Below are positions 10,756-56,495 of a stretch of 64,000 bases of DNA, one piece after another. The notes beneath the pieces are model-generated. The model saw only the letters and a list, made by a program, of their open reading frames with translations. It was not told where the DNA came from and ran no database searches. Source of the stretch: Candidatus Nomurabacteria bacterium (GTDB lineage Bacteria > Patescibacteriota > Minisyncoccia > Phycocordibacterales > JAACPR01); assembly GCA_020632215.1 (NCBI GenBank), contig JACKFZ010000001.1, positions 17,444 to 81,443 on the forward strand. The letters run 5' to 3'. The position numbers and the translations under genes are program-made. The first letter of the stretch is position 1. Each line of letters starts with the position of its first letter.

Positions 10756-11172
10756 CTAATCTAGATCTTTGTAAAAAGCAGTGAAATCGTTTCCTTTGGT
10801 AAAACCTAGAGATTCATATCTTTCTACAAAGTCTGAATTGCCAGATGGTGCATATACTAGTACTTGGGTATGTCCAAGAGATTTTATAATATCTTCAGCT
10901 TTTTTATATATTTCGTCAGTAGCTTTTTTATCTACTGATGCAAATCTATATAACCAAACAGTTCGTCCATCTTCAAAAATTGTTAACGTGGCTAATATTT
11001 TATTATCTTTTTCAGCAACTAATATACACTCAGGTTTGTTTTCTGATAATTTCTCGAGACGTTCTTGGGAATCTCTATTGTTATCAAATTGACCTCCAAA
11101 AGTTGAAGAATCTTTATAAAGGCTGCTGACTTCTTCATAATCTGTCTCTGGACTATAATTTCTAATTATCAT
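10756..11172 (-). CDS. GNAT-family N-acetyltransferase (putative)
   Basis: 138 aa with a GNAT-like beta-strand/acetyl-CoA motif region (ATLTIFEDG...). Only weak similarity is discernible. Confidence 0.4.
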   Translation of the reverse strand: MIIRNYSPETDYEEVSSLYKDSSTFGGQFDNNRDSQERLEKLSENKPECILVAEKDNKILATLTIFEDGRTVWLYRFASVDKKATDEIYKKAEDIIKSLGHTQVLVYAPSGNSDFVERYESLGFTKGNDFTAFYKDLD

Positions 11173-11271
11173 GTTCTAATTTTATCAAATAAGAGATTCT
11201 TTTCTACTAACTATTTACTACTAACTACTAACTAACAAAACCCCTTTTCATCCAAAAAAAACCTGCTATAA

Positions 11272-11577
11272 TTGGGCGCAATCGCAGATATGGTTGAGGA
11301 AATTGACAAAAATGCAGAGATCAAAAAGTTAGAGTCTGAGCGAGAAAAACACGTTACTCGCATCTTTTGGATACTAATAGAAATTGCCTTTATTTTTGGA
11401 ATCCCAGCTGCTGTTGCGGTTGTTTTGGTTAAATTTTTGGGAGGCCATACTCTATATATAGCTTTGCCAATCGCTTTCATTCTGTCTTGGGTTATTTTGA
11501 TACTTCATTATAGAAAGATGAGTCAGAGACTAAAGGATTTAGATAGAAAGATAAAAGAACTTAAGATTAGTAAATAG
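11272..11577 (+). CDS. AtpZ/AtpI-like small membrane protein preceding atpB
   Basis: 101 aa with 2 TM helices, located immediately upstream of the F0 a subunit gene. Confidence 0.45.
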   Translation: MGAIADMVEEIDKNAEIKKLESEREKHVTRIFWILIEIAFIFGIPAAVAVVLVKFLGGHTLYIALPIAFILSWVILILHYRKMSQRLKDLDRKIKELKISK

Positions 11578-11640
11578 TAAATACTAAATAGTAAAAGTAG
11601 AAAAGATTATTTAGTATTTACTACTAACTATTTACTAAAA
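11570..11640. repeat. AT-rich heptad (AGTAAAT)n inverted repeat
   Basis: tagtaaatactaaatagtaaaag ... tatttagtatttactactaactatttacta forms a long imperfect palindrome with stop codons in all frames on both strands. Confidence 0.6.
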
Positions 11641-18196: not shown

Positions 18197-18793
18197 ATGA
18201 TAGAAAACAAAAAAGCTTTTATTTTCATAGGTCCATCAGGTTCTGGAAAGGGAACACAGTTAGATCTGTTGGAAACTTATCTCAAAGAGAAAGACCATAG
18301 AGAGATATTGAGATATGAAGCAGGAGCTTCACTGAGAGAGTTTGCTAAGGGAGATAGCTTTATGGCCAAGAAGGTTCATCACACTATCAATGTTGAAGGT
18401 GGTTTGTTACCTAGATTTATCATGGTTTGGAACTGGGGGAGAAGATTGGCTCTTGAGCTGAAAGAAGATATGAATCTCATTTTAGAGGGATCTCCTAGAA
18501 AAGTGGAAGAGAAAAAGTTGATTGATGATGCTTTACAATATGCGGACTACAAAGATATTTACGTTATACATTTGAATCTAAGTGATGATGTGGCTGTTGG
18601 GAGATTGATGAGTAGAGGAAGAATTGATGATCAAGAAGAAAAAATTAGAAATCGCCTTAAGTGGTTTAGAGAAGAAGTGGCTCAGACTGTAGAAGAGTTT
18701 AAGAATGATGATAGATATATATATTGTGAAATAGATGGTGATCAGTCTATAGAGAAGGTTCAGGAGGATATTATTAAAGCTTTGGGGGTTTAG
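18197..18793 (+). CDS. adk: adenylate kinase-like P-loop kinase
   Basis: GPSGSGKGTQ P-loop, and an RGRIDDQEEKIRNRL LID/NMP signature like Adk. Confidence 0.6.
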   Translation: MIENKKAFIFIGPSGSGKGTQLDLLETYLKEKDHREILRYEAGASLREFAKGDSFMAKKVHHTINVEGGLLPRFIMVWNWGRRLALELKEDMNLILEGSPRKVEEKKLIDDALQYADYKDIYVIHLNLSDDVAVGRLMSRGRIDDQEEKIRNRLKWFREEVAQTVEEFKNDDRYIYCEIDGDQSIEKVQEDIIKALGV

Positions 18794-18872
18794 ATAAAAA
18801 GAAGAGCCCCGCGCCGTCTTTCCTTTCGGATTGACGAACGCGGGACCTTTGTTTAAATGGGGTGCGAAGGGT

Positions 18873-19346
18873 TCAGTGGGCGTTAGCCACCCTGAGCCAC
18901 TTCTTGAATCTTGAACGAATGGATAAGCAGATCAGGATCCACAGCTCGTGAATCAGCTCGCCGGCGTGTTTGGGGATGCTGGCGATCTGCTCGGCGGCGT
19001 AGTCTTCGTCCGGGGGGATTCTACCGGTCATGATCAGCTCTACCAAGTCGACAGCATCGTCAATGCATGGACCATTGGCTTTGATGTTGAACTGGTACCC
19101 GCTTTTTTTGTCAGAATAACCGGGCGGTGAAACTTCCGCGGTTGCTGTTCCGAAGGAGTATCTTCCTGGTGTCCGCCAATCACTTCTTCTGTTCAGTAAG
19201 CTGGAGTAGACAGTGAAGTAGTCTGGTCTGTATCCGGTAGAAATACACTGCCTCAGGCAGAGTTCTCTGCCTCTTTCCATGTAGGCGATTTGCCCAGCGT
19301 TCGGGTAAACTCCGATAGCCGCTTTTGAGTATGCGCTTATTGTCAT
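18873..19346 (-). CDS. hypothetical protein in GC-rich cassette 1
   Basis: 157-aa ORF in a ~55% GC segment, against ~33% for the host. Codon usage is foreign-looking and there are no recognisable motifs. Confidence 0.35.
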   Translation of the reverse strand: MTISAYSKAAIGVYPNAGQIAYMERGRELCLRQCISTGYRPDYFTVYSSLLNRRSDWRTPGRYSFGTATAEVSPPGYSDKKSGYQFNIKANGPCIDDAVDLVELIMTGRIPPDEDYAAEQIASIPKHAGELIHELWILICLSIRSRFKKWLRVANAH

Positions 19347-19584
19347 TGCCTTTATTCCGCCTGGAGTGGTCCCCAGGTCTGGTTAGGATTTTCAGTGAAG
19401 GTTCATTTGTGGAACACTCGCTCCACGAACTTTCGTCAGGGATAATATAATAAATTTTGTATTATGTCAAATATTCCTAATACACCCTCGTCACCAAACT
19501 TGGTTTAGATTTTAGATAAAAAGAAGAGCCCCGCTGTTCGATTTCTACTAAGCGGGACGGGTGATCGTGGCTGATAATTGAAGT

Positions 19585-22845: not shown

Positions 22846-23061
22846 GCGGTAGAGTATAGCAGAATAATGTGAAATATGAATGAAGAAAATCAGGGTTATT
22901 TTAGGAATTATTTAATAATGTTTGAATATTATTTATAAGTTTCTTTAGAAGAGATTTTTTATAATAAAAAGTGTGGTGCCCAGGTAAAACGCGGCGCAGC
23001 CCACCCCGGGCTTGATCCAGGGGCGGGAATTGTTCAATAATATTTTGATAAATTTGTTAAA

Positions 23062-25012: not shown

Positions 25013-25125
25013 GACTCATTGCTCCCACCCTTGTTTGGGTGGGGGAACCACTTAGCCACTCCCGAACCAGAACTTTGTTCGGTTCGGGACTAATCCAGAA
25101 CTAAGCTTCGCTTTAGTTCTGGGCA
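25013..25125 (+). ncRNA. candidate small structured RNA (three GC-rich stem-loops, the last with a U-tail)
   Basis: Three hairpins: tcccaccc/gggtggga, cccgaacc/ggttcggg and ccagaactaa/ttagttctgg, then gcaattttt. The element lies in a divergent-promoter intergenic region and is GC-rich against an AT-rich background. Confidence 0.25.
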
Positions 25126-25293
25126 ATTTTTATTATAGAAAATATCTTCTAAAGAAACTTATAAAAAATTCTAAAATCAAAATAAAAAAGTCTTAAAATA
25201 TAGACCATTCGATTAATAAAGATTTTAGGGCTATTTTACTAGAAATTTATCAGTTTTATGGTTAGGGCTTAATCATTTTGGTATATTGTTCTC

Positions 25294-25920
25294 ATGAAAA
25301 AGGTAATTTTATTTGATTTTGATGGGGTGATTGCTGACACTTTCAGGATGATACACTCTCTAAATAAGGACTATCATAAATTGAGTGAAGATAAGTATCG
25401 AGAACTTTTTAAGAGCAATATCTTTACAGAAACTAAAAGAATTTTGAATCATCAAACTGAGGAAGATGCTAAAAGACATCATGACGAGTGGTTTGAAAAA
25501 TATACTCCCGCACTCTTGAAGCAAGGTATATTCGTCGGTATGCCAGAAGCTATCGAGGAATTGAGTGAGGATTTCGATATGGTAATCATCTCTTCTTGCG
25601 AATCTTCTGCCATCAGACAATTTTTGGAAAAACATAATTTACTATCTTATTTTTCTGACATTTTGGGTTCTGATGTTCATTTTGATAAATCAGAAAAAAT
25701 ACAAATGGTTTTTGATAAATACGATTACAAGAACACAGATTGTATTTTTGTCACAGATACGGTGGGTGATATTTTAGAGGCAAAAGAAAAAGAAGTGCCT
25801 TCGTTGGTTGTTACGTGGGGTTACCATCGTAAAGAGCACTTCCTTAATTATGATTTTATTTCTTTTGTTGAAAGTCCAGGAGAACTTCCAAAATTAGTAC
25901 GAGATTATTTTAAAGACTAG
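25294..25920 (+). CDS. HAD-IA family hydrolase (phosphatase)
   Basis: ILFDFDGVIADT motif I, a downstream motif II Ser/Thr, and a GD-containing motif IV region. Confidence 0.7.
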   Translation: MKKVILFDFDGVIADTFRMIHSLNKDYHKLSEDKYRELFKSNIFTETKRILNHQTEEDAKRHHDEWFEKYTPALLKQGIFVGMPEAIEELSEDFDMVIISSCESSAIRQFLEKHNLLSYFSDILGSDVHFDKSEKIQMVFDKYDYKNTDCIFVTDTVGDILEAKEKEVPSLVVTWGYHRKEHFLNYDFISFVESPGELPKLVRDYFKD

Positions 25921-26738
25921 AATTCATCTTCCAAATCATCGTATGCATCCTCGGCAGTTTCTCTGGCTTCTTTGGCAAGGTCATAAGCTTCATCATAATC
26001 ACTGTCATCATATGCATCATATGCATCATCTAGGAGATCTTCTGCATCGTCTAATTCGTCTTCTGCATCATTGATTGCGCTGTTCCTAACACCATCGTCA
26101 TCAGCATCGTCAATGAGATCTTCCAAATCATTAATAGCATCTTCCGCATCATTTAATTCATCTCTAGCATCTTCCTTATCATTGTTTCTGTTACCCATAG
26201 CATCGTCTAAATCATCGTATGCATCTTCCGCTATGTCTTTTGCTTCTTGAGCTAAGTCAGAAGCTTCAAAATAGTCTCCATCATCATATGCATCTTCTGC
26301 ATCATCGAGAAGATCCTCCACATCATCTCTGTCATTTTTTGCCCTTTTTAATTCACTACTACTGACATCACTGTCATCTTTAGCATCATCTATGAGTTCT
26401 TCCAATTCGTCCAAAGCATCATAAGCATCATCCAGATCATCTTCGGCGTCTGAACGATTTCCATAGCCATAGTTATAGTAAGTGTTTCCAGAAGAATAAT
26501 ATCCGTATGATCCAGAAAGAGCAGAGATCTGATTTCTAAGATTTTGAATTAGGTTTAATATGTCTCCAATAGACATCTGAACATATGATCCGTTGCTTAG
26601 CTGAATAGCAAACGTGCTATTTGTATTGTATGGGTTGTAAGCAGGGATATAGCTTTGGGCTTCTGCTTGTGATGGGGCAGAAACAGTCAAAACTATTGCC
26701 AAAACAAACATTATTGGAAGTATTTTGATGTATTTCAT
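25917..26738 (-). CDS. secreted poly-acidic (Asp/Glu-rich) tandem-repeat protein
   Basis: Signal peptide MKYIKILPIMFVLAIVLTVSAPSQA, then two ~40-aa internal repeats (EDLLDDAEDAYDD.DY.EA.DLA.EA...AEDAYDDL.D) and further D/E repeats. Start taken at the internal ATG at 26738. Confidence 0.6.
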   Translation of the reverse strand: MKYIKILPIMFVLAIVLTVSAPSQAEAQSYIPAYNPYNTNSTFAIQLSNGSYVQMSIGDILNLIQNLRNQISALSGSYGYYSSGNTYYNYGYGNRSDAEDDLDDAYDALDELEELIDDAKDDSDVSSSELKRAKNDRDDVEDLLDDAEDAYDDGDYFEASDLAQEAKDIAEDAYDDLDDAMGNRNNDKEDARDELNDAEDAINDLEDLIDDADDDGVRNSAINDAEDELDDAEDLLDDAYDAYDDSDYDEAYDLAKEARETAEDAYDDLEDEF

Positions 26739-26881
26739 GTTTTTATAAATTAATAATAATACCTCTTTATGTGGCCACATTACAATATTTTTCCTTGTAT
26801 TTCAAGGGTTATTTGACCTAGCTTTTACAAGCAAAAATAGTATGGTAGTTTTATCTATATTATTATTTAATAAAAATTACT

Positions 26882-41995: not shown

Positions 41996-42715
41996 AATAT
42001 TAATTTGCAAAAGCTGCTAATATGGCAGAGGCTACAAACAATAGAAGTAGTATTTTAGAGTAATCTTTCTTTATTTGGTACTTTTCGGGGACATGTAAGC
42101 CAAATATGAAGCCTGAAAATAAGATTCCTACTATTGCTCCCATACATACTCCTGCTAAATACATTAATGTCATATGCCTAGTATTTTTATTTTTTAAATA
42201 ATTAGGCTTTCACACAAAAAGCCCGCCACGGATAGAGGCCGAACCTCTCGTACCAGTTTCCTGATACGGCCTATCAAGCAAACCCCATGACGGGTTCTTT
42301 ATGCTTGATAGGACTTTCTTACCGTGCCAAATAAAATTTGGGTTAGGCAATATTATTATTCAGTTGTCCATTCATTCTAACATGTATATCAGAAACACCC
42401 TATGGTCCTTATTTTAAGCCTTTTAATAAAACGATATCGTTTATGTGTCAATGATTATTTACGATATCGTGGATAAAGTCTTAGACCAAAAAACTGTTTT
42501 CTAATACGTTCTAGATACTGAGGGTAATATGTTTGCATTTCCTTTAAAAGAAGAAGATTTCATTACAGATGGCATAGTTAAGTTTTTTGACTTGCTATCT
42601 AGTTTTGACTACGAAGATAAATTAAAAGAAAGATCAGGGTATGATTCCGTTTCCTTAGATCCATCCCCTAGGGACTCGGAATTAGATTCTGATCCTGGGT
42701 GCTAATTATATAAAA

Positions 42716-43510
42716 ATGGGAAAAGGGATGGAAAAAGTAAAATATACAAAAGAATTTAAGAACTGGGTTCCTTTGCAAAGAGACCTTGCTGCTGATAAAA
42801 GAAATGGCAAGATTAGCAAGGGAGAATACGACCTGTATGTTTGGATGAAAACGATCACAAATCTTGAAGGGATAGCCATTGTGAGTTTGGACTCACTTTG
42901 TGAGGATGTTTTTTCAAATCGTGTTAAGAGGAATTATGTGAATCAACTACTTTTGTCACTCAAAGCTAAGAGGTACATATACTATTATCCTAGATCCGGC
43001 AAGAAAGGTTCTTTTGATGTCCATTTTGATAAAATCTTTATATCTGGCGGTATTCTAAAGAATATTGATAGTTTTTTTGACACAGAAAATAATGGCTTTT
43101 CTAATGTTAGACCTCATCAAGAAACAGAGGTTAGTAAGAGCCCTGGTAATGTTTGTAAGAGGTTGTTCGATGAAGAAACTATAAATAAACGTGATATTTT
43201 AGAGAAATTTACAGAAGGAGTAAGAGGTTACGGAAGATATAACGATAACGATACTGATAATAAAGATCGATTATATAAAAATAAAATTACTGTGAGTAAC
43301 TATGATCCACAGATTCCAGAGGAAAAGCTGTGCTTGGTAATTGCAAAAAGGATTGGAGAAAAAAATATGGACTTTATCTTATCAATACTCAAGAAACATG
43401 GAATTGATGTAATTAATCAGGCTTATGAAATTTTTGAGAGAAAAATTAGTGAAGATATAAAAAATCCACCCGCGTATTTCAATGCAATTATTAAAGATTT
43501 GGTAAAATAA
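42716..43510 (+). CDS. hypothetical island protein (possible Rep/DNA-binding protein adjacent to iterons)
   Basis: 264 aa with no clear motifs. Function is inferred only from its position between the iteron-like array and the recombinase. Confidence 0.35.
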   Translation: MGKGMEKVKYTKEFKNWVPLQRDLAADKRNGKISKGEYDLYVWMKTITNLEGIAIVSLDSLCEDVFSNRVKRNYVNQLLLSLKAKRYIYYYPRSGKKGSFDVHFDKIFISGGILKNIDSFFDTENNGFSNVRPHQETEVSKSPGNVCKRLFDEETINKRDILEKFTEGVRGYGRYNDNDTDNKDRLYKNKITVSNYDPQIPEEKLCLVIAKRIGEKNMDFILSILKKHGIDVINQAYEIFERKISEDIKNPPAYFNAIIKDLVK

Positions 43511-43515
43511 AAAAT

Positions 43516-45090
43516 ATGAAAACTATAATCTATGCAAGAGTCTCGTCTAGAGAACAGGAGGATACCGGATATTCTTTAGATGCTCAAGAAAAACTATTGA
43601 AAGAATATTCAAAGAAGAAGGGTTTAAATGAAATTAAAACTTTCAAGATTACCGAATCTGCTAGTGGTAGACAGATACGAAAAACTTTTAATGAAATGCT
43701 TCAGTATGCTGATAAGAATAAGGTAGATATCATTCTCTGTGAAAAAATAGATAGATTGACTAGAAATCTAAAGGATGCGGCTGTAATAAGCGATTGGATA
43801 CAAGAAGATGAAAAACATGAAGTTCATTTTGTAAAAGAGAATTTTATTGTAAATAAAAATACTAGAGCCCATGAAAACTTGGTTTGGGATATGAAGGTGG
43901 CTATTGCCAGGTTTTATACAAACAATCTCTCTGAAGAAGTAAGAAAAGGCCAAAAAGAAAAGATTGCACAGGGTTGGCTACCGACTAAACCACCACTTGG
44001 GTATAAAACTGTGGGAGAAAAAGGTCATAAGATCCATGTGATCGAACAACCAACTGCTTCTTACGTCCAGAAAGCTTTTGAATACTATGGGTCCAGTAAT
44101 AATTCTATTACTGCTGTAACAGAAAAATTATACGAAGATGGTTTGAGGACCAGGGCTGGCGGCAAGGTGGCTAGAAGTAGGATTGAGGTTATGCTAAAAG
44201 AACCTTTCTATTACGGTGCTATGAGATGGAATGATCAAGTGTATTCTGGCAGGCATGAACCTTTAATAACCAAAGAGCTGTTTGATAAGGTCCAGAATTT
44301 ACTGACTAGGAAAAAAGTTCCTCACTACAAGAGTCACAGCTTTATGTTTAGGAAGCTACTTACTTGCGGAGAGTGCGAAGGAACTATTACAGGAGAAATT
44401 CAAAAGGGAATTATTTATTACCACTGCAATCATTATAGAAAGTGTAGTCAAAAAGCTTATGCTCCAGAAAAAGTCGTGGAAGAACAAATTATGGGAGTAT
44501 TTAAGTTCTTTGAGTCGATAACCGAAAAAGAAGCAGAGCAGATTAAGTCTAAAATTCGCCAAAATCACGCTCAAGAAATCGAATATAAAGAGAAGGCATT
44601 AGATGGTCTTAATAATCGCTACAAGGCATTACAGAAGCGTCTGGATGTACTCTACAACGATAGGCTGGATGAACGAATATCTCTAAATATGTGGGAGATA
44701 AAAAATAAAGAGATTGTTGGAGAACAAGAGGAGATCCAAAATCAAATTAAGAAAATGAAAACAGAAGAAGCTAAATACTTTGAAATTTGGCTAAATATTT
44801 TAGATCTTGCACGGAGAGCAAGAGAAATTTATGAAAAAAGATCTCCAGAAGAGAAGAGATTGCTACTAAATTATATTTTTTCGAACCTAACTTTAAAAGA
44901 CAAAAAAGTTATATATTCTTTGACAAAACCAGTAGAGGTATTGGCTAAAAGGGTCCAGGAGAAGTTGGATGCTGAAAAGAGTTTCGAACTAAAAAAAACC
45001 TTTGTAAAACAAAGACGAAATAAGGATTTAGTAGGGGTTTCTACTGCTCTGCTCCACGGGCAGGATTCGAACCTGCAACCAATCGATTAA
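43516..45090 (+). CDS. large serine recombinase (resolvase/invertase N-domain, recombinase domain, zinc ribbon, coiled coil)
   Basis: IIYARVSSREQ catalytic Ser region. Recombinase domain with a CGECEGT...YYHCNHYRKC zinc ribbon, then a long coiled coil. 524 aa. The 3' end overlaps the tRNA-Asn. Confidence 0.85.
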   Translation: MKTIIYARVSSREQEDTGYSLDAQEKLLKEYSKKKGLNEIKTFKITESASGRQIRKTFNEMLQYADKNKVDIILCEKIDRLTRNLKDAAVISDWIQEDEKHEVHFVKENFIVNKNTRAHENLVWDMKVAIARFYTNNLSEEVRKGQKEKIAQGWLPTKPPLGYKTVGEKGHKIHVIEQPTASYVQKAFEYYGSSNNSITAVTEKLYEDGLRTRAGGKVARSRIEVMLKEPFYYGAMRWNDQVYSGRHEPLITKELFDKVQNLLTRKKVPHYKSHSFMFRKLLTCGECEGTITGEIQKGIIYYHCNHYRKCSQKAYAPEKVVEEQIMGVFKFFESITEKEAEQIKSKIRQNHAQEIEYKEKALDGLNNRYKALQKRLDVLYNDRLDERISLNMWEIKNKEIVGEQEEIQNQIKKMKTEEAKYFEIWLNILDLARRAREIYEKRSPEEKRLLLNYIFSNLTLKDKKVIYSLTKPVEVLAKRVQEKLDAEKSFELKKTFVKQRRNKDLVGVSTALLHGQDSNLQPID

Positions 45091-45122
45091 CAGTCGACTG
45101 CTCTACCATTGAGCTACCGTGG
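45051..45122 (-). tRNA. tRNA-Asn (anticodon GTT)
   Basis: The reverse complement folds as a cloverleaf. Acceptor tccacgg/ccgtgga, D-arm gctc-aatggta-gagc, anticodon stem gtcga/tcgat with loop ctGTTaa, T-arm tgcagg-ttcgaat-cctgc. Discriminator g; CCA is not encoded. Confidence 0.8.
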
Positions 45123-45206
45123 AATATAGTTCTCTATAAGTGAACTAGTCAGAAATATTAACAACATTATGGCTTGATGTCTAGTTTTTTGGATTACACA
45201 TAAAGG

Positions 45207-46173: not shown

Positions 46174-46241
46174 GTTTTGATATAATATTTTTGTAATTAG
46201 GTATTCCTATTTACTATTTACTACTAACTATAAACTAATTC

Positions 46242-46608: not shown

Positions 46609-47232
46609 ATGAAAAGCAGTTCAGCCACATTTTTAATTTTTGTCATTATCATTGCTGGAGCTTATTTTTTTGTGAAGCAAAATGATTTGGATAAAACATC
46701 AGGAGAATCAAAAGAATTAGGAGAAATTAATCAAGAAAAAAATATGAGTAATCAAATCGCAACATTTAAAACAAACAAAGGAGAATTTAAAATAGAACTA
46801 TTTGGGGATAAAGCTCCAAAGACAGTAGAGAACTTTGTCACTTTGGCCAATCAAGGATTTTATAACAATACAAAGTTCCATAGAATTATTGCTGATTTTA
46901 TGATTCAAGGTGGTGACCCTTTGACAAAAGATGATTCTCAAATGACAAGATGGGGAACAGGTGGTCCAGATTATAGGTTTGCTGATGAATTTGGCGAAGG
47001 ACTTTCAAATGTAACTGGAACAATATCGATGGCCAATGCCGGTCCAAATACAAACGGAAGCCAATTTTTCATTAATGTGGCTGATAATACTTTTCTAGAT
47101 GGTAAACATGCGGTCTTTGGAAAAGTGATTGAAGGGATGGATCTGGTGATGCAGTTGAGCAAAGTAGAGACAGGGGAGAGAGATGTGCCTGTAAGTCCTG
47201 TGGTTGTTGAGAGTGTTTCTATTAGTCAGTAG
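46609..47232 (+). CDS. ppiB: peptidyl-prolyl cis-trans isomerase, cyclophilin type
   Basis: FHRIIADFMIQGGDP and the SMANAGPNTNGSQFFIN cyclophilin motifs. N-terminal TM or signal sequence. Confidence 0.9.
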   Translation: MKSSSATFLIFVIIIAGAYFFVKQNDLDKTSGESKELGEINQEKNMSNQIATFKTNKGEFKIELFGDKAPKTVENFVTLANQGFYNNTKFHRIIADFMIQGGDPLTKDDSQMTRWGTGGPDYRFADEFGEGLSNVTGTISMANAGPNTNGSQFFINVADNTFLDGKHAVFGKVIEGMDLVMQLSKVETGERDVPVSPVVVESVSISQ

Positions 47233-47377
47233 TAAATAGGTAGTAGTTAATAGTAATTGTCGTTCTGAAACTCCGAAAAGCAGGTCTTTCAGAATGTTTT
47301 TATTTATAAAAAAATCCTGCCTAGCTGGCGGTCCTGTCGGACGGCTTAGGGTAAAGCCCCTCGATTTCGCTCGGAGT

Positions 47378-48268
47378 TCAAGATGACGGATAGAGAATTT
47401 CCTTCTTACCTTCAGGAATCACTTTTTTGATGATGAATTTACCACGAGATCCTGAATCTCTCGCCTCATTCTTCGGCTCGGGTTCAGGATGACGGGAAGG
47501 AATAAACTCTGCTTCTGTGATTTTCATTCTCTTACCATCTTTAAAGAAAAAAGTACCAGGCCAAGGTTTATAGGCTTTGTATTTTAAGAAGTTAAGATAT
47601 GGATCATCTTCTAAATTGAGTTCTCCATCTGATTTTTCTATTTTTTCTGTGAAAGTAGCAAGATTATGTTCTTGTTCTTGTTCATCTATATTACCTAGAA
47701 TCCACTCTGGGATAATTTGTGCCAAAATACGTCCTCCATCTCTCGCCAATTTTTCCAAGACTTCCATTTTGTCAGGCCAATTTTCAAAATAAAGAACTTC
47801 CTGATCAAGTATTGGTCCATGATCCATTTTTTCATCCATTCTCATGACAGTGACACCTGTTTCTTTATCGTTATTTAAAATAGCAGTCTCTATTGGAGTG
47901 GCACCTCTGTATTTTGGCAGTAGAGAAGGGTGAACATTTAGTGCCTTATACTTTGGTAATTTTAAAACAGAGTTTGGAATAATGAGTCCATATGATGCTA
48001 CTAAGAATAGTTCACACTCATATTTTTTTATTTTTGAAATAAAATTGTCATCTAGTTTTTCTGGCTGCAATGTTTCAATTTTATTCTCATCTGCCCAAAC
48101 CTTTACTTCACAAGGAGTTAATACTAACTTTCTTCCCTTTGGTCTATCTGGAGTAGTTACTATCAGATCTGGGATGATGCCAGCATTTTTTAATTCTTCC
48201 AAAACAAAAACACTGAATTCATCAGTCCCGAAAAATGCTATTTTTGTTTCTAATTTTTGATTGACCAT
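47378..48268 (-). CDS. fmt: methionyl-tRNA formyltransferase
   Basis: IAFFGTDEFSV at the N-terminus and the HPSLLPKYRGATPIETAI formyltransferase motif. C-terminal extension present. Confidence 0.85.
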   Translation of the reverse strand: MVNQKLETKIAFFGTDEFSVFVLEELKNAGIIPDLIVTTPDRPKGRKLVLTPCEVKVWADENKIETLQPEKLDDNFISKIKKYECELFLVASYGLIIPNSVLKLPKYKALNVHPSLLPKYRGATPIETAILNNDKETGVTVMRMDEKMDHGPILDQEVLYFENWPDKMEVLEKLARDGGRILAQIIPEWILGNIDEQEQEHNLATFTEKIEKSDGELNLEDDPYLNFLKYKAYKPWPGTFFFKDGKRMKITEAEFIPSRHPEPEPKNEARDSGSRGKFIIKKVIPEGKKEILYPSS

Positions 48269-48270
48269 AT

Positions 48271-48345
48271 TCTACATTCTACATTCTACATTCTACATTC
48301 TAAATACTACATTCTACATTCTACATTCTAAATTCTACATTCTAA
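48271..48345. repeat. (TTCTACA)n heptamer tandem array filling the def-fmt intergenic space
   Basis: About 10 tandem heptamers with occasional taaata/taaatt variants. The array abuts the def stop codon. On the minus strand it reads TGTAGAA, giving TAG in all three frames. Confidence 0.8.
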
Positions 48346-48848
48346 CTTTCCTTTGATTCCATTTCTTCTAACTCTACAGCATGATCGACAAATAGAATAC
48401 CATTCAAATGATCTATCTCATGTTGAAATATTTGTGCCAAGAGGCCACTGGCTGACATTTGGAATTCTTCAGCATTTTCACCATAAGCTTTGACTGTTGC
48501 TCTAGAATGTCTTCTGGTTTTGCCATACCACCATCTAACAGAGAGACATCCTTCATCGAGCAACTTCTCATCTTTTGAATGTTTGATAATTTCTGGATTT
48601 ATAAATACCAATCTCATGTTATCAGGGTCCTTGGCAAAAACTTTTGGAGCAACGACAAAGATGCGCAGGTTTACACCTATTTGTGGAGCTGCTAGAGCTA
48701 CACCGTCATTTTGAGAAGCTAAAGATTGATGCATCTCTTTCAAAATATTCTGGATTTTATCTGTTTCAATCTCTGAAAGTTCAACAGCATTACTGATCTT
48801 TCTCAAGGCTTCCCCTTCTACTGTATCTTTTTGAACGATACTTTTCAT
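48342..48848 (-). CDS. def: peptide deformylase
   Basis: GVALAAPQIG, EGCLS and HEIDHLNG, the three PDF motifs. Confidence 0.9.
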   Translation of the reverse strand: MKSIVQKDTVEGEALRKISNAVELSEIETDKIQNILKEMHQSLASQNDGVALAAPQIGVNLRIFVVAPKVFAKDPDNMRLVFINPEIIKHSKDEKLLDEGCLSVRWWYGKTRRHSRATVKAYGENAEEFQMSASGLLAQIFQHEIDHLNGILFVDHAVELEEMESKES

Positions 48849-48985
48849 ATATTGCTAAGTATAAGGAATTATGTTGTTTTGACAATATATGAAAATTTGG
48901 TAGTTTATGTCAAAAGTTCACGTTTCTCTTTTAGTTTAGGAGAACATTTACAAAATCAAAATCAAACCGAGGAAGGAAAAAAATT

Positions 48986-49336
48986 ATGAAAAGGATTGCA
49001 TTTCACAAACTTCAAATTGGTCCGCCGAGACATGGTGTTATCTTGTGCAGCCATGAAGGAGAGGGGATGGTCGATTACTGTGCTGGTGATCAGAGGACAC
49101 TACTTCTTCAAAATTCTGCCGACACAACGTTCACGATGGTCTGTCAGGGCAGACATCGTCGAAGTGACCTCGAAAAAGGCAATGAGGTATGGGTAATCTA
49201 TTGGAAAATCACGAAAAACTGTTCTTTGCCAAATGATGCCAAACAATTGTCTTCAGCAATTGAGTTGGGATCCCGGGCATCGTCACTGGAATGGTTAACT
49301 CAACCTGATTTTCTCAGGAAATACCCTGAAATTTGA
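48986..49336 (+). CDS. hypothetical ORF in a locally GC-enriched (~45%) segment
   Basis: 116-aa ORF with no motifs. The segment is bracketed by the two heptamer arrays. Coding status is uncertain. Confidence 0.2.
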   Translation: MKRIAFHKLQIGPPRHGVILCSHEGEGMVDYCAGDQRTLLLQNSADTTFTMVCQGRHRRSDLEKGNEVWVIYWKITKNCSLPNDAKQLSSAIELGSRASSLEWLTQPDFLRKYPEI

Positions 49337-49450
49337 TCGACACCTTTCTCTTTATCCCGCGGTCACAGGATTCACTCCTCGTGGCCGCTTCGTTTTTATC
49401 TATTACCTATTAACTACTCCGCATAAACTTCGCTATACAGGGCAAGTATT

Positions 49451-49538
49451 CTAAATACCACATTCTACATACTACATACTACATTCTACATTCTACATTC
49501 TACATTCTACATTCTACATTCTAAATTCTACATTCTAT
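49451..49538. repeat. (TTCTACA)n heptamer tandem array abutting the priA-like stop codon
   Basis: A second copy of the same heptamer array (ctacatactacatactacattctacattctacattctac...). Confidence 0.8.
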
Positions 49539-51436
49539 AAAAGACTTTGTGCTCCCACCACTACCTTATATTGTGGTGGCAATGACATTAACTTTTGATG
49601 TAATTCTTGATCAATCCATTTTTCAGGATTTATTTTTATCAATCCATTGAGGATATACTTTCCTTTTTGTTCTTGTGTAAAAGCAGGGTAAATTATTAGC
49701 TCTGTTGGCTCTAAATATTCTTTTAGTTTCTCAAACTCTTTTTCAACCGAATATTTTTTGCCAGCTAAACTTATTTTTATCAAAAGTGAGAAAGGTGGAT
49801 AGTTGAATTGTTTTCTCTTTATAAATTCATCTCTATAAAAGTCTGATAAGTTGCCACGAATAGCTAATTCAAAAATAGGGTCGTCTATCCTTCTGGTTTG
49901 GACAAAAAAGTTTTGGGTGGCCCTATTTCTAATTTTAAGTAAAATTCTCATCACTCGTTCTCTGATCGCAAAATCTGGTAAAGAGAGGAGGGAATCAATG
50001 CTGACGATAGCAGTATTTTCAACTGGATTTTTCAAATACAGAAGTGCCATTTCTGTGCCAACAAGAACACTTCCAGGAGTATCATAAAAATCTTCTGCTA
50101 CTTGGCGAGCTTGTCTAGCAGTCTTAGTATTATCGCTATCTATAACAAAAACTTTTTGATCAGGAAATTTTTCTTTGATCGCTTCTACTGTTGTGCCAAC
50201 GCCTATGCCAAGAGGTCGTAATTTCCAGCTATTACAATGACGACAAAGTTCACCAGCACTCCTCTCATCACCACAAACGTGGCATTTGAAAAAATTTTCT
50301 TTCTTGGTGGCATCTTTGCCATGCAGAACCACGGGAGCAGTACATTGATTACATTGCACCACAGTTCCACAATCACCACATATAATAGTTGGCGCTAGTC
50401 CACGACGACCAGCAAAGAGAAAAGTTTGCTCATTTTTTTCTTTTGTCGCTTTGATTAGTGAGATAACATCGTTAGATAATACTGCAAACATTTCACCACC
50501 ATTTTGTCTGTCTTTTGTCATATCTATGAACTTCTGCGTGGCAGAAGAAAGTGAACGGAATTTCATTGGTGCAAATTCTTCAAATTGATGATTGTCAAAA
50601 CGCCAAAGAGTTTCTGTTCTCATCATGATGTCACCCAAGACAAATTTAGCTCCAAGTTTCTTGGCATAATCTTCAGCCAGCATTCTAATATCCAGGTAAG
50701 GATTTTTTTGTATTTTATAAATAGATGAACTTTCTTTATCTAAAATTATGCAACCGATATCATGTCTAGGTACCCCAAGAAATATTGGCGTAGTGATAAG
50801 CACAATTGGTTTTTCTGATTCTATAATTTTATTCCACTGGTCAACTACTTGTTTTTTGGTCATACCACTATGCAAAATGAAAGCATAGTTTTCTATACCT
50901 TTTGATAAGTTTTCTTCTGCCCATAATACATCCTCGGTCGTTGGGAAGATGGCAATGACTGACTTGTTTTTGACAAATTGGCCACGAATTAAATTTTTAT
51001 AATGAGAAAAACGATCTGTAATATTCGATTGTAAAATAAATCGCTCGGGCTCTTTTTCAGCGGCTTTATTCCTCGATTCTTTTGGGTTCTGTAATTTATT
51101 AATACCATCCAATATTATTGCTGAAGTTAAATTTTGCAGAACATTACCAGGTGTAGAGGCAAAATAATCAGCTATTCCAAATGCGACATTAACAAATTCT
51201 TTTTGATAGAGAGTGTTTTTTGTAACACCTTTTATTTTTTTTAGTTTAAACTTGGAAGATTTAAGATTCTCTTTTTCTTTACTTAGGTCTTCTGTTTTGA
51301 TAACCAAACCCAAGGCATTTTTATTTCTAAGTTCTATAGTTACGATAGAGCCAATATTTATTTTTTTAGATGAAAAATATGAAAGAGAGTCTTTTCTAAA
51401 ATTTTTAGCAAATGGTACAACTTGGATTAAATACAT
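49535..51436 (-). CDS. priA: primosomal protein N' (PriA)-like, with degenerate Walker A/B motifs
   Basis: N-terminal 3'-DNA-binding domain, a helicase core with LHSGMTKKQ, and a Cys-rich CGDCG..CNQC...CHVCGDE...CRHC zinc region. The Walker A position reads QFVKNKSV instead of GxxGSGKT, and the DEEH box reads LDKES. Confidence 0.65.
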   Translation of the reverse strand: MYLIQVVPFAKNFRKDSLSYFSSKKINIGSIVTIELRNKNALGLVIKTEDLSKEKENLKSSKFKLKKIKGVTKNTLYQKEFVNVAFGIADYFASTPGNVLQNLTSAIILDGINKLQNPKESRNKAAEKEPERFILQSNITDRFSHYKNLIRGQFVKNKSVIAIFPTTEDVLWAEENLSKGIENYAFILHSGMTKKQVVDQWNKIIESEKPIVLITTPIFLGVPRHDIGCIILDKESSSIYKIQKNPYLDIRMLAEDYAKKLGAKFVLGDIMMRTETLWRFDNHQFEEFAPMKFRSLSSATQKFIDMTKDRQNGGEMFAVLSNDVISLIKATKEKNEQTFLFAGRRGLAPTIICGDCGTVVQCNQCTAPVVLHGKDATKKENFFKCHVCGDERSAGELCRHCNSWKLRPLGIGVGTTVEAIKEKFPDQKVFVIDSDNTKTARQARQVAEDFYDTPGSVLVGTEMALLYLKNPVENTAIVSIDSLLSLPDFAIRERVMRILLKIRNRATQNFFVQTRRIDDPIFELAIRGNLSDFYRDEFIKRKQFNYPPFSLLIKISLAGKKYSVEKEFEKLKEYLEPTELIIYPAFTQEQKGKYILNGLIKINPEKWIDQELHQKLMSLPPQYKVVVGAQSLL

Positions 51437-54776: not shown

Positions 54777-55328
54777 ATGAAACACAACATTAATGATTTT
54801 AAAAGAGGATTATCAGACATTGAGGAGTGGTTGAAAAAAGAGATGTCTGGTATTAGAACAGGACGAGCAACCATCAATTTGCTAGATTCTGTCATGGTTG
54901 AATCTTATGGTACCAAAAGTCCTATCAATCAGAATGCTACTATAAATATAGAAGATCCAAAGACAATTCGTATTGTTCCGTGGGATAAGAGTCTGATACA
55001 AGCCATAGAGAAGTCTATTACGGTTGCTGATCTAGGAATTTCTACTTCTGTTGATGGAGAAGGCTTAAGAGTTATTTTTCCAAATCTGACAACTGAAACT
55101 AGAGAAAAATTGGTAAAGCAAGCAAAAGGAAAAATGGAAGAAGCAAAGATTTCGACTAGAAATGAGAGGAACAAAATAATGAAAGAAATCGACGAAGATA
55201 AAAAAGATGGTGGTTTACCAGAAGATGATATGAAAAGAGCCAAAGATGAGGTCGAGTCTTTGATTAAAAAAAGCCACGATGCGTTTGAAGATTTATTAAA
55301 AAAGAAAGAGCAGGAAATTTTAATCTAG
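54777..55328 (+). CDS. frr: ribosome recycling factor
   Basis: Strong match to RRF across the whole length (MSGIRTGRATINLLDSVMVESYG...). 183 aa. Confidence 0.9.
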   Translation: MKHNINDFKRGLSDIEEWLKKEMSGIRTGRATINLLDSVMVESYGTKSPINQNATINIEDPKTIRIVPWDKSLIQAIEKSITVADLGISTSVDGEGLRVIFPNLTTETREKLVKQAKGKMEEAKISTRNERNKIMKEIDEDKKDGGLPEDDMKRAKDEVESLIKKSHDAFEDLLKKKEQEILI

Positions 55329-55410
55329 TAAATAGTAAATACTAAATAGTAAGCAGATCTTTTATATACTTTACTATTTACTATTTACTATTTACTATTT
55401 ACTAACATGT
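55326..55410. repeat. (AGTAAAT)n / (ATTTACT)n inverted heptad repeat forming a ~26-bp AT-rich hairpin
   Basis: agtaaatagtaaatactaaatagtaa ...loop... ttactatttactatttactatttactatttact. Confidence 0.7.
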
Positions 55411-56495
55411 CGATAATCATATTCATAATCATACTAGGAGCACTAATTTTTGTTCATGAACTCGGACATTTTATTGTTGCCAAAAAGAGTGGCATCAGAG
55501 TTGATGAGTTTGCTATCGGATTTCCGCCAAAGATTTTTGGTTTTAGAAAAGGAGAAACGGATTATGCTTTGAATCTGATTCCTTTCGGAGGCTATGTCAA
55601 AATTTTTGGAGAAAATCCAGATGATGAATCACTGGATCCAAACGCTAAAGATAGTTTTGTTAATAAATCAAAACTGATACAAGCAGCTGTCTTGGTAGCA
55701 GGTGTTGCTTTTAATATTATTTTTGCATGGTTACTTTTTTCAATTAGTTTTATGACAGGTTTTCCATCTGTAGTTACTGATGAAACTAGAGACCGTATTT
55801 CTGATGTGAATGTAGTTGTCACGGATGTTTTAGAAAATTCACCAGCTGCTTCTATTGGTCTGCAAGTTGGAGATCAAATTGTTGCTATAAAAAGTGAAGA
55901 TAATGTTTTGGATGAAAATTTAAAAATTCCTGATGTTCAGAATTTTATTGCTAATAATCAAAATGGATTTACTCTTGAATATTTTAGAGGAGAAAATATT
56001 CAGACAAGTTATATTGTTCCGGCAGACGGAATTGTAGAAGGAAAACCTGCTATCGGAATTTCTATGGACATGATTGGCTCTCTGAAACTTCCTATACACA
56101 AGGCATTTGCTGAAGGTCTGAAAATGACAGGGCAAGTGACAAGAGATATTGCTATCGGTTTATATACATTTATTGGTCATATATTTGTTGGTAAGGCAAA
56201 TCTTGAGCAAGTGGCTGGTCCTGTAGGCATTGTCTCTCTGGTCGGCAATGCTGCACAGTTTGGATTCATCTATCTTCTAGGATTCACAGCTTTTATATCT
56301 TTAAACTTAGCAGTATTAAACTTAATACCATTTCCTGCATTAGATGGAGGAAGATTACTTTTCATTTTGATAGAGGCTATTACTAGGAAATCTATTCCAA
56401 CAAAAGTTGCTAATGTTACTAATGCTATAGGATTTGCGATACTAATTTTATTGATGGTTGTTATTACTATTAGTGATGTAGTTAAATTGTTTTAG
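55407..56495 (+). CDS. rseP: RIP metalloprotease RseP (site-2 protease, M50)
   Basis: HELGHF (HExxH), a PDZ domain, and C-terminal LDGG plus TM helices. Confidence 0.85.
   Translation: MSIIIFIIILGALIFVHELGHFIVAKKSGIRVDEFAIGFPPKIFGFRKGETDYALNLIPFGGYVKIFGENPDDESLDPNAKDSFVNKSKLIQAAVLVAGVAFNIIFAWLLFSISFMTGFPSVVTDETRDRISDVNVVVTDVLENSPAASIGLQVGDQIVAIKSEDNVLDENLKIPDVQNFIANNQNGFTLEYFRGENIQTSYIVPADGIVEGKPAIGISMDMIGSLKLPIHKAFAEGLKMTGQVTRDIAIGLYTFIGHIFVGKANLEQVAGPVGIVSLVGNAAQFGFIYLLGFTAFISLNLAVLNLIPFPALDGGRLLFILIEAITRKSIPTKVANVTNAIGFAILILLMVVITISDVVKLF

Follow-up and report, generated by a model that had tools for sequence, protein, structure and literature searches.

What are the two tandem heptamer arrays that stand on either side of the peptide deformylase gene in this Candidatus Nomurabacteria genome, and why do they occur as a pair? 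A sequence-only reading of the locus had offered three answers, namely the remnants of an insertion or excision event, a translational stop-insulator, and a hypermutable microsatellite. The window analyzed here is the whole stretch of 64,000 nucleotides, and all positions refer to it.

Arrays in the priA-def-fmt spacers

The features of the locus are as follows.
47378 to 48268, minus strand: fmt, methionyl-tRNA formyltransferase (Pfam PF00551, 5e-34).
48269 to 48344, minus strand: array 1, (TAGAATG)n with 11 in-phase TAGs, running from the def stop codon to 3 nt short of the fmt ATG.
48342 to 48848, minus strand: def, peptide deformylase (Pfam PF01327, 2e-42).
48884 to 48913, minus strand: predicted sigma-70-like def promoter, TTGACA-18-TATATT, with 11 of 12 matches.
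48986 to 49336, plus strand: ORF116, a fast-evolving small gene of atypical GC content with a homolog in the sister species.
49359 to 49399, plus strand: predicted intrinsic terminator for ORF116, with a T-run after a GC-rich hairpin (-19.5 kcal/mol, z -5.4).
49400 to 49416, minus strand: a short run of TAG-N4 units, TAGTTAATAGGTAATAG, which follows array 2 in the downstream direction of this strand.
49448 to 49537, minus strand: array 2, (TAGAATG)n with 11 in-phase TAGs, opening with the priA stop codon.
49535 to 51436, minus strand: priA, primosomal protein N' (Pfam, PriA 3' DNA-binding domain).

Both arrays were retrieved by Tandem Repeats Finder with a period of 7. Array 1 contained 10.9 copies with 91% matches and a score of 131. 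Array 2 contained 12.9 copies with 89% matches and a score of 138. These were the top scores in the window by a wide margin. The 14-mer TTCTACATTCTACA, allowed up to 2 mismatches, matched 22 times across the window, and 21 of the 22 matches fell within the two arrays; shuffles gave an expectation of 1.34. The two arrays about 1.1 kb apart that had been read from the letters are present, far above chance, with a gap of 1103 bp between them.

The unit is TGTAGAA/TTCTACA, which reads (TAGAATG)n on the minus (coding) strand in both arrays. Each array contains exactly 11 in-phase minus-strand TAGs. Unit 1 of array 1 is the def stop codon (TAG at 48344-48342), and the fmt ATG (48268) lies 3 nt past the last TAG. 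The whole def-fmt spacer is array 1, as had been claimed. Unit 1 of array 2 is the priA stop codon (TAG at 49537-49535), which bears out the reported contact with priA. The distal end of array 2 is degraded to TAGTATG and TGGTATT units. Both arrays have the ends TAGAATGTAGAATTTAG(AATGTAG)n and GTATTTAGAAT in common; aligned in register, they are 94% identical. They are direct repeats of each other. No inverted partner was found, and a plus-strand TGTAGAA array is absent throughout the window.

Both arrays are intergenic, lying outside ORFs between a native stop codon and the next feature. The protein termini are the same as in relatives, and the arrays thus span just the stretch between the native stop and the native start. 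Folding predicts unstructured RNA for both arrays (z +1.95 for array 1 and +2.16 for array 2), with less structure than in 198 to 199 of 200 shuffles. No terminator overlaps either array. The minus strand does encode TAG in all three frames, as noted before, and this is trivial because any TAG-containing unit of period 7 does so. The name stop-insulator is accurate as a description only, since it follows automatically from the period.

The locus in relatives and strains

The segment from 48900 to 49440 had been singled out for its higher GC content, and this holds. Its GC content was 0.42, compared to 0.343 for the window, which ranks it among the top 2% of windows of 541 bp. The GC3 of ORF116 was 0.41, compared to 0.25 to 0.29 in priA, def, and fmt. 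ORF116 had been called dubious. It is a real, fast-evolving, lineage-restricted gene, because the sister species contains a homolog, ORF112, at the same position (31% identity). ORF116 is thus neither of the two things earlier considered for the segment, a noncoding transcript or a conserved core gene. The sister species also keeps the terminator hairpin of ORF116, despite base changes, and the -35 region of the def promoter. ORF116 had no match in Pfam (including PF05635), PHROG, or PADLOC, and NCBIfam gave a sub-threshold match only. The sole match in a database protein search was ORF116 itself. Its single-sequence AlphaFold model had a pLDDT of 42, too poor to use for fold comparison.

The sister species encodes PriA and Def proteins that are 80% and 71% identical to those of the window. 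Its locus contains an array after priA, the divergent small ORF, and an array between def and fmt. Both arrays are built of other heptad units than in the window, with TAGTCAG-TAGTCGG-TAGGTAG... after priA and TAGTTAG-TAGTTAA-TAGTTAG-TAG in the def-fmt spacer. The comparison of relatives that had been proposed therefore shows arrays kept at both positions while their units turn over. In more distant relatives, priA and def are 12 to 27 nt apart, def and fmt overlap, and the arrays are absent. The priA-def spacer is variable among relatives, and one of them (L005) carries two different orphan ORFs there.

The arrays are hypervariable. Two independent assemblies were 99.4 to 99.5% identical to the window, and 3 of 15 substitutions fell within 57 bp of array 1. 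In one of the two (L001), array 2 has lost 28 bp (4 units), a length difference that depends on short-read de Bruijn assemblies, in which repeats can be collapsed. Variation in repeat number between strains had been suggested as the check on a hypermutable microsatellite, and the deletion and the clustered substitutions support that description.

TAG-phased heptads and PF05635 genes

The window contains about ten further TAG-phased heptad elements in intergenic spacers. Runs of TAG (>=3 in a row) occurred 13 times at period 7 and 0 to 1 times at the other periods within 4 to 12. There were 10 period-7 arrays, compared to 1, 6, 0, and 2 for periods 5, 6, 8, and 9. Every period-7 array in the window contains TAG/CTA. 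The core CTATTTACTACTAACTA is common to five loci. The placed elements are as follows.
73 to 103, plus strand: CTA-sense heptad arm, 4 nt ahead of the start codon of a pgi-like gene.
5923 to 6361, plus strand: heptad-armed cassette with a TAG arm (5923-5939), a PF05635 gene (5990-6286), and a CTA arm (6338-6361).
10716 to 11234, no strand assigned: inverted heptad arms (10716-10746 and 11204-11234, 94% complementary) around a GNAT-like ORF (10756-11172).
11568 to 11637, plus strand: heptad hairpin without an ORF (TAG arm, 14-nt loop, CTA arm; -20.9 kcal/mol, z -3.9).
46207 to 46237, plus strand: CTA-sense heptad arm, 4 nt ahead of the start codon of hpf.
47223 to 47253, plus strand: TAG-sense heptad arm that overlaps a cyclophilin gene at its stop codon.
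55326 to 55404, plus strand: heptad hairpin without an ORF (-26.3 kcal/mol, z -6.75).

The family takes four forms in this genome: solo arrays, intercistronic hairpins, arms at the GNAT-like gene, and arms at the PF05635 gene. PF05635 is the family of the 23S rRNA intervening sequence (IVS) protein, a four-helix bundle. The hairpin at 11568-11637 occupies all of the spacer that precedes the ATP synthase A gene. The hairpin at 55326-55404 takes up the entire frr-rseP spacer, beginning at the frr stop codon and ending 2 nt short of the ATG. One inverted heptad-arm element in another organism lies inside a 16S rRNA loop (L230).

The number of TAGs in canonical arms peaks sharply at 5 (58 arrays) and 4 (47 arrays). 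CTA-sense arms lay within 20 nt upstream of a start codon in 38 of 46 cases, compared to 10 of 43 for TAG-sense arms, and also precede highly expressed genes, including those for GroEL-like, L20, and L21 proteins. TAG arrays were found in both orientations relative to transcription. For TGTAGAA arrays in other genomes, 21 of 69 adjoin the stop codon of a gene on the same strand, compared to 3 of 59 in the opposite orientation. Canonical TAGTWAR elements from metagenomes do not include the TAGAATG unit. Positional replacement within this one lineage is therefore the basis for linking the two families.

We also considered TTCTACA as a special conserved motif and rejected it. Permuted heptamers formed x3 arrays in viral contigs as often as it did or more often: (TTCTACA)x3 gave 10 matches and composition-matched permutations gave 50, 16, and 4. 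Rfam at gathering thresholds gave LOOT RNA and tRNA-Asn only for the window. Permissive Rfam scans of 48200-49650 and 55280-55440 gave only chance-level snoRNA/miRNA matches, and neither arrays nor hairpins have a curated RNA family there. In the literature searched, the exact motifs (TTCTACA, TGTAGAA, CTAACTA, etc.) appeared only in primers and unrelated uses.

Heptamer repeats are tightly linked to PF05635 genes. Inverted heptamer arrays bracketed 11 of 14 PF05635 genes, compared to 62 of 2058 other genes (p 1.6e-14). The association is strong and was reproduced in independently chosen cyanobacterial plasmids. In 49-kb stretches of two such plasmids, a strict detector found 2 of 3 PF05635 genes bracketed and 0 of 70 other CDS; the second arm of the third gene appears under a looser detector only. 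PF05635 genes also lie beside TGTAGAA/TTCTACA arrays in L120 and L058, and the arbitrary control unit TTACTCA flanks them in L199 and L200. A cyanobacterial PF05635 gene in L280 has direct heptamer arrays on its flanks. Arms around PF05635 genes in other taxa contain about 3 to 15 units. The link is not part of the published description of cyanobacterial STRRs or heptanucleotide SSRs in the literature searched.

Known relatives and competing explanations

The arrays belong to a known kind of repeat that includes heptanucleotide SSRs, cyanobacterial STRRs, and TAACTGA repeats. Heptanucleotide SSRs (Mrazek et al. 2007) and STRRs (Mazel 1990) are likewise tandem 7-nt units that are nearly always intergenic. 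They too are numerous per genome, with period 7 far above neighboring periods, and differ in unit number between strains. The arrays are head-to-tail 7-nt copies above chance and intergenic, with a period-7 excess and a strain polymorphism seen in short-read assemblies. They differ in that the units are AT-rich and TAG-phased, the first unit is the upstream stop codon, and the host is a CPR bacterium. TAACTGA direct repeats occur in marine Beggiatoaceae, Cyanobacteria, and Bacteroidetes (MacGregor 2015, PMC4679880). Like elements of the window, they are stop-codon-rich heptamers a few nucleotides upstream of starts in Shine-Dalgarno (SD)-poor genomes, and the canonical window unit TAACTAC/TAACTAT is 2 positions away from TAACTGA. 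In contrast, the unit of the two arrays is TGTAGAA/TTCTACA and not TAACTGA, array 2 is upstream of no start codon, and array 1 is TAG-sense, opposite to the start-proximal arms of the window. Hairpin pairing and cargo genes are not reported in that paper (PMC4679880).

The IVS in Coxiella burnetii rRNA has terminal inverted repeats (28-bp stem) and 2 to 3 tandem GACAGAT heptamers, variable in number between strains, upstream of the S23p ORF (PMC4990558). Its design is matched by the cassette at 5923-6361 and the 16S insertion of L230. Arrays 1 and 2 differ from it. They are direct, surround def and ORF116, and lie outside rRNA, without inverted repeats and without a PF05635 gene between them; such a gene is present at 5923-6361. 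HutP recognizes UAG-N4-UAG-N4-UAG, which has a period of 7, and the HutP and TRAP readers are ring-shaped oligomers. Like their sites, each array has UAG triplets at a fixed short spacing, 11 in phase with 4-nt spacers. Unlike them, the arrays are not in a hut or trp setting, members of the family face both ways, and there are 11 repeats instead of 3+3 or of 11 with 2- to 3-nt spacers. No HutP was found among the approximately 48 window proteins scanned with Pfam, nor a terminator over the arrays.

REPIN/REP, Correia elements, and MITEs resemble the canonical heptad hairpins, being short dispersed inverted repeats between co-transcribed genes with sequence common across loci. The heptad arms differ from these in being built of phased 7-nt repeats, and arrays 1 and 2 form no hairpin. 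We identified neither a target-site duplication nor a transposase, and no IS200/RAYT-type gene was found among the scanned window proteins.

On balance, we favor the reading that the arrays are probably solo, slippage-expanded TAG-phased heptad repeats in consecutive operon spacers. They would be tolerated selfish or near-neutral derivatives of heptad-armed elements and no dedicated regulatory device. The family, TAG plus 4 variable bases, occupies intergenic spacers in this Nomurabacteria lineage, and the two arrays would derive from the armed elements elsewhere in the genome (hairpins and PF05635 cassettes). The arrays are paired only because two consecutive spacers of the old priA-def-fmt operon each hold one, both in the gene-3'-end orientation with TAG on the coding strand. 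Turnover is fast, and replication slippage may be what changes the number of units. Gene conversion between arrays 1 and 2 may explain why they resemble each other more than their sister-species counterparts. Effects on expression would be by-products of the sequence, which supplies the upstream stop codon and UAG in three frames. Each array yields an RNA spacer free of C and of predicted structure, which can reach the fmt start codon in a host that rarely uses SD sites (an SD-like motif was found in only 6 of 69 genes). Array 1 ends 3 nt from the ATG of fmt, which has no SD; no start codon follows array 2. In phase-variation contingency SSRs, the tract lies in an ORF or a promoter spacer and switches expression through its unit number. 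The two arrays are outside ORFs, and changes in the size of array 1, which separates def from the fmt ATG, could affect fmt expression. Several points weigh against near-neutrality. The arrays persist in both spacers across species about 20 to 30% apart in protein, and the TAG phase is held while the 4-nt spacer changes, both of which hint at selection. The orientation rules of canonical arms are strong, and a coding filter alone is insufficient to explain them. The absence of TAGAATG from canonical metagenomic elements and the dependence of the 4-unit difference on collapse-prone short-read assemblies also count against the reading.

In a rival reading, the arrays may be functional cis-elements in mRNA or DNA, in which a UAG every 7 nt is the platform for a ring-shaped nucleic-acid-binding protein that controls fmt translation, mRNA processing, or stability. 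By analogy with HutP (UAG-N4) or TRAP, the best candidate reader would be the genome's own PF05635 protein, a putative S23p/Avd-like homopentamer. S23p is a toroidal homopentamer (PMC4990558), and Avd is a pentamer in which all five protomers contact RNA (bioRxiv 10.1101/2023.10.23.563531). The spacers vary under a constant TAG phase both within and between species, canonical arms peak at 5 and 4 TAGs, and PF05635 genes are bracketed here and on the cyanobacterial plasmids and lie beside this very unit in L120 and L058. We nevertheless consider this role unlikely. The window proteins scanned include no HutP or TRAP family, TAG arrays face both ways relative to transcription, and co-location of arrays and genes could reflect a shared mobile history instead of binding. 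The match of five TAGs to five subunits was set aside as speculation only, given the range of arm lengths elsewhere. Another reading makes array 1 a set of tandem -10-like boxes (TAGAAT, 5 of 6 to TATAAT) driving a leaderless fmt transcript and has array 2 produce RNA antisense to ORF116, with a variant unit supplying the -35-like TTTAGA. A promoter scan found TTTAGA-17-TAGAAT in both arrays, and a TAGAAT precedes the fmt ATG by 7 nt, where the -10-like hexamers of this genome peak (12 of 69 genes at gaps of 6 to 7 nt). However, the region contained 13 promoter-like matches compared to 14.5 expected from shuffles, and a gap of 7 is automatic for any period-7 array ending at an ATG. Canonical heptad units have no TANNNT hexamer at a usable distance, def has a strong predicted promoter, and the ancestral layout is a def-fmt operon. 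With consensus matches not above shuffle level, we rejected this reading as very improbable. Leaderless -10 boxes within canonical CTA arms were also rejected, their hexamers having no conserved final T or lying too near the ATG.

The other readings concern origin. The arrays could be independent de novo microsatellites, made by polymerase slippage and a general bacterial bias for 7 nt, with no link to the hairpins or PF05635 cassettes. Heptanucleotide SSRs are the most over-represented class of long SSRs in many bacteria, with slippage proposed, according to accounts of Mrazek 2007 in PMC4679880 and PMC4692102. This origin would suit the arbitrary control heptamers that also form arrays in viral contigs and the exclusion of TAGAATG from the canonical metagenomic units. 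It is improbable given that the sister species has canonical TAGTYRG arrays in exactly both spacers, that TAG/CTA is in all period-7 arrays of the window, and that the control unit TTACTCA itself flanks PF05635 genes. Least credible of all is the insertion or excision idea first raised for this locus. In this form, the ORF116 segment would have arrived by recombination, insertion, or excision and left the arrays behind as direct-repeat scars. Near-identical direct repeats around 1.1 kb, the atypical GC content of ORF116, the variable priA-def spacer with its other orphan ORFs in L005, and the direct arrays around the L280 gene would fit such an event. The sister-species locus largely refutes it, as both arrays and the ORF116 homolog are already in the same layout there with different units. 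The flanked segment also includes the core gene def, and array 1 sits between def and fmt, not beside ORF116. We found neither an inverted partner nor a target-site duplication. Direct pairs of one unit 0.4 to 2.5 kb apart are common elsewhere (11 cases around ordinary genes in other genomes), because consecutive operon spacers each carry one array.

Alone, the arrays add one more case to a poorly understood class of repeats that has been known since 1990. They are of more use as a starting point, and the association singles out PF05635 as a concrete candidate partner of bacterial heptamer repeats. We tentatively propose, as a conjecture more doubtful than the favored reading, that these arrays, the TAG-heptad hairpins of CPR bacteria, and cyanobacterial STRRs are arms or ORF-less remnants of one widespread element. 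Its full form would be a PF05635 gene between inverted heptamer arrays. It may settle in operon spacers and rRNA loops as paired arms allow bypass or excision at the RNA level, with the pentamer reading the register of 7 nt. In that case, the solo arrays behind priA and def would be orphaned arms with a remaining role in binding or processing. If a pentamer does read 7-nt-phased repeats and RNase III cuts the paired arms, this would explain the period-7 excess among bacterial SSRs and say what cyanobacterial STRRs are. It would also explain the "S23 ribosomal protein" genes in rRNA IVSs, CRISPR-Cas operons, and diversity-generating retroelements.

Two heptamer arrays in the priA-def-fmt operon

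The window, from a Candidatus Nomurabacteria (CPR/Patescibacteria) MAG, has a hypervariable heptad array phased on TAG in each of two consecutive operon spacers. Array 1 lies between def and fmt, and array 2 lies directly after priA. The locus contains the following features (array statistics from Tandem Repeats Finder).

47378-48268, minus strand: fmt, adjoining array 1
48269-48344: array 1, 10.9 copies, period 7, 91% matches
48342-48848, minus strand: def, between arrays 1 and 2
48986-49336, plus strand: ORF116, a small 116-aa gene with a homologous ORF in the sister species
49448-49537: array 2, 12.9 copies, period 7, 89% matches
49535-51436, minus strand: priA, flanking array 2

The sequence-only reading had described two paired heptamer arrays, the first filling the def-fmt space and the second abutting the priA stop codon, and all of this holds. 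The arrays have the top two Tandem Repeats Finder scores in the window. The 14-mer TTCTACATTCTACA, with up to 2 mismatches, gave 22 matches, 21 of them within arrays 1 and 2 versus 1.34 expected. On the minus strand both read (TAGAATG)n, with exactly 11 in-phase TAGs each. The def stop codon is the opening TAG of array 1 and the priA stop codon that of array 2, and the fmt ATG stands 3 nt beyond the end of array 1. The presence of TAG in all three frames after each gene end, also pointed out by that reading, is true but automatic, because a period of 7 is not a multiple of three. As RNA, the arrays are free of C, and their predicted structure falls below that of 198 to 199 of 200 shuffles.

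We compared the locus with that of relatives. The sister species, from sample SRR32414324, has a PriA 80% and a Def 71% identical to those of the window. Its post-priA array (TAGTCAG TAGTCGG TAGGTAG TAGTTAG...) begins directly after the stop codon, and the contig ends there. Its def-fmt spacer is filled by TAG TTAG TAG TTAA TAG TTAG TAG GATT ATG. Distant relatives (PriA 54 to 58% identical) have a priA-def gap of 12 to 27 nt and overlapping def and fmt, without arrays. The C termini of PriA, Def, and RRF and the N termini of Fmt and RseP are of equal length in all relatives, so the arrays exactly span the distance from native stop to native start. The array positions predate the species split. 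The remnant of an insertion or excision proposed earlier is the wrong explanation, as the sister species has arrays of other units at both sites.

The two arrays of a genome agree in their units, but the two species do not, and the simplest reading is conversion between arrays 1 and 2 (concerted evolution). Arrays 1 and 2 also have the same end structure and are 94% identical in register, which fits this reading. Two independent Logan assemblies were 99.4 to 99.5% identical to the window, with 3 of 15 substitutions in 57 bp of array 1. One of them has a 28-bp deletion in array 2, which could in principle be an assembly collapse. These differences bear out the suggestion of a hypermutable microsatellite. 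Contigs from both assemblies break within heptad arrays.

ORF116 had been called dubious. It is a real gene, since the sister species encodes a 112-aa ORF in the same position and orientation (31% identity over the full length, E 2e-7). No family match was found for it, and in a 5.8-billion-protein collection the only protein found was ORF116 itself. A hairpin is predicted after ORF116 (-19.5 kcal/mol, z -5.4). The TTGACA -35 box of the def promoter is conserved in the sister species; the terminator hairpin 3' of the small ORF is kept there too, with changed bases. The reported GC enrichment was confirmed. The segment at 48900-49440 has a GC content of 0.42, in the top 2% of equal-sized windows, and ORF116 has a GC3 of 0.41 versus 0.25 to 0.29 in neighbor genes. 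Small lineage-specific genes appear to have landed in the priA-def spacer repeatedly. In one relative (PriA 57% identical; locus L005, 11912-12967), the priA-def gap contains two orphan ORFs distinct from ORF116 (80 and 126 aa).

Heptad elements in the window and in other genomes

The window contains 10 period-7 arrays versus 1, 6, 0, and 2 at periods 5, 6, 8, and 9. It contains 13 TAG runs at period 7 versus 0 to 1 at each other period from 4 to 12. The heptad elements other than arrays 1 and 2 are not simple microsatellites. The 17-mer CTATTTACTACTAACTA is common to five loci, within an element of about 31 nt that has five TAG or CTA triplets, and the elements bearing it are 90 to 94% alike pairwise. 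Inverted arms occur at the following places, among others.

10716-11234: pair of inverted heptad arms (94% complementary, separated by 455 nt) bracketing a weakly GNAT-like 138-aa ORF
11568-11637: heptad hairpin (inverted pair), -20.9 kcal/mol predicted
55326-55404: heptad hairpin (inverted pair), -26.3 kcal/mol predicted

Six arrays end 2 to 4 nt 5' of a start codon (pgi-like, gdh, atpB, hpf, fmt, and rseP). An SD-like motif precedes only 6 of 69 window genes. Near-consensus -10 hexamers peak 6 to 7 nt 5' of ATGs and stand at this distance in 12 of 69 genes, priA and def among them. Initiation thus appears to be largely SD independent, with widespread leaderless or near-leaderless mRNAs, and this explains how a repeat can directly adjoin a start codon.

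A scan of GTDB species genomes for (TTCTACA)x3 retrieved at least 120 stretches (847 kb). Hosts among the matches listed were Bacteroidota, Cyanobacteria, several CPR lineages, a Pacearchaeota archaeon, and others. The listed stretches contained 449 period-7 arrays versus 8 to 60 at other periods. In them, 21 of 69 TGTAGAA-sense arrays abutted the stop codon of a gene on the same strand versus 3 of 59 arrays in the reverse orientation. Eleven direct TGTAGAA array pairs, 0.4 to 2.5 kb apart, surround ordinary genes (MoaC, Cas1, and a response regulator), so paired arrays around a gene are consecutive spacers. TTCTACA was rejected as a special unit; it had 10 viral-contig matches versus 50, 16, and 4 for composition-matched permutations.

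The canonical element, queried as CTANNNNCTATTTACTACTAACTA, retrieved 69 metagenome contigs with GC contents of 0.28 to 0.64. They contained 120 TAG-period-7 runs versus 0 to 7 at other periods, with run length peaking at 5 TAGs (58 runs) and 4 TAGs (47 runs). Arm orientation was strongly biased. CTA-sense arms were within 20 nt upstream of a start codon in 38 of 46 cases and within 6 nt of a stop codon in 10 of 61; for TAG-sense arms the counts were 10 of 43 and 24 of 53. The downstream genes include those for GroEL-like, L20, and L21 proteins. Among neighboring arms, the order TAG-arm, loop, CTA-arm was found 20 times and the opposite order 2 times, so the element usually takes the form of a hairpin lying between one stop codon and the start codon that follows. 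In one 16S rRNA (metagenome contig Ga0209002_10090386), the terminal loop of a helix has a 126-nt insertion, at about Rfam model position 1157, that consists mostly of such a hairpin (1038-1118 of the fetched locus). The insertion therefore resembles an intervening sequence (IVS) in small-subunit rRNA.

Cassettes of PF05635 genes

Heptamer arrays form the arms of cassettes of PF05635 genes (S23p/Avd-like four-helix-bundle family) across CPR, Bacteroidota, and Cyanobacteria. The association was first noticed at a cassette in the window.

5923-6361: arm-bracketed cassette, with 16 of 17 nt pairing between its TAG and CTA arms
5990-6286: PF05635 gene in this cassette, outside any rRNA gene

The product matches PF05635 (1e-28), TIGR02436 "four helix bundle protein", and PDB 2gsc (5e-17). 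An iterative search of all fetched loci found 15 PF05635-like ORFs, 14 with both flanks present. Inverted period-7 arrays were within 120 nt on both sides of 11 of the 14 versus 62 of the 2,058 remaining genes of these loci (odds ratio, 118; p, 1.6e-14). The units vary by organism (TAGTTAG, TAGTACG, TAATGAG, and GGCAGGA). TGTAGAA/TTCTACA arrays were on both sides of the gene in one fetched locus (L120) and on one side within 200 nt in another (L058), each with Pfam support of about 1e-30. Arms can enclose cargo besides PF05635, as the GNAT-like ORF indicates.

An independent sample was chosen from PLSDB by protein similarity only. It contained 23 records, nearly all cyanobacterial, and 10 loci were fetched. 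In about 8 of these, clear tandem heptamer arrays stand on each side of the gene; most of the pairs are inverted, and one is direct. The units are unlike on the two sides in L282, and the repeats of L286 and L287 appear nearer to period 8. In 49-kb stretches of two of the plasmids, 0 of 70 other CDS were bracketed, and a strict detector found arrays on both sides of 2 of 3 four-helix-bundle genes. The third has one strict arm and a second arm under a looser detector only. In L291, a heptamer array adjoins a bona fide DGR avd gene. The PF05635 genes of L280, L285, L286, and L058 are inside CRISPR-Cas operons, in the cas6-cas4 gap, in the cas10-cmr3 gap, or directly after cas1, most with heptamer arrays on both sides. 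The cassette link is a by-product worth following up.

Origin and possible role of the arrays

Arrays 1 and 2 stand where the sister species has canonical heptad arrays. They are real and belong to a known but unexplained kind of repeat. They show every defining feature of bacterial heptanucleotide long SSRs and STRR-like repeats (Mrazek 2007; PMC4679880; PMC4692102). MacGregor's TAACTGA repeats have a different unit but a similar position and a similarly SD-poor context. Being direct repeats with no PF05635 gene between them, arrays 1 and 2 do not qualify as an IVS-type cassette. Nor do they qualify as a HutP site, a MITE, or a promoter.

The arrays probably descend from heptad-armed elements. 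Slippage would expand and contract them, and conversion would homogenize them. They would be tolerated because their orientation can neither extend nor create ORFs and because the host needs no SD site in the spacer. A dedicated regulatory role of any kind is a good deal less likely, although the conserved position, the conserved TAG phase, and the PF05635 association speak for one. The leading candidate among such roles is a binding platform for a PF05635 pentamer. S23p is a toroidal homopentamer, and the Coxiella IVS has 2 to 3 strain-variable heptamers upstream of the S23p ORF, with an RNase III cut at the first repeat (PMC4990558). Avd is a pentamer in which all five protomers contact RNA (bioRxiv 10.1101/2023.10.23.563531).

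Other features of the window were observed.

18500-19400: most pronounced GC island in the window, reaching 0.53 versus 0.34
18873-19346, minus strand: orphan 157-aa ORF in this island, directly after the ATP synthase operon
22897-22973 and 25124-25200: 77-nt inverted repeat, 81% complementary, with VanY-like and FMN-reductase genes in the roughly 2.1 kb between
25917-26780, minus strand: gene for an acidic repeat protein (weak DUF1771 match) with extensive internal direct repeats, a 31-nt family in 11 copies and a 178-nt duplication
42234-42349, minus strand: LOOT RNA (Rfam RF03000; 80 bits, gathering score 46), a short distance upstream of the recombinase region
43516-45090: large serine recombinase (Resolvase, Recombinase, and Zn-ribbon domains), preceded by an orphan 264-aa ORF
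45051-45123, minus strand: tRNA-Asn, overlapped by the 3' end of the recombinase gene

The region at 42716-45123 probably marks the edge of an element that integrated at tRNA-Asn.
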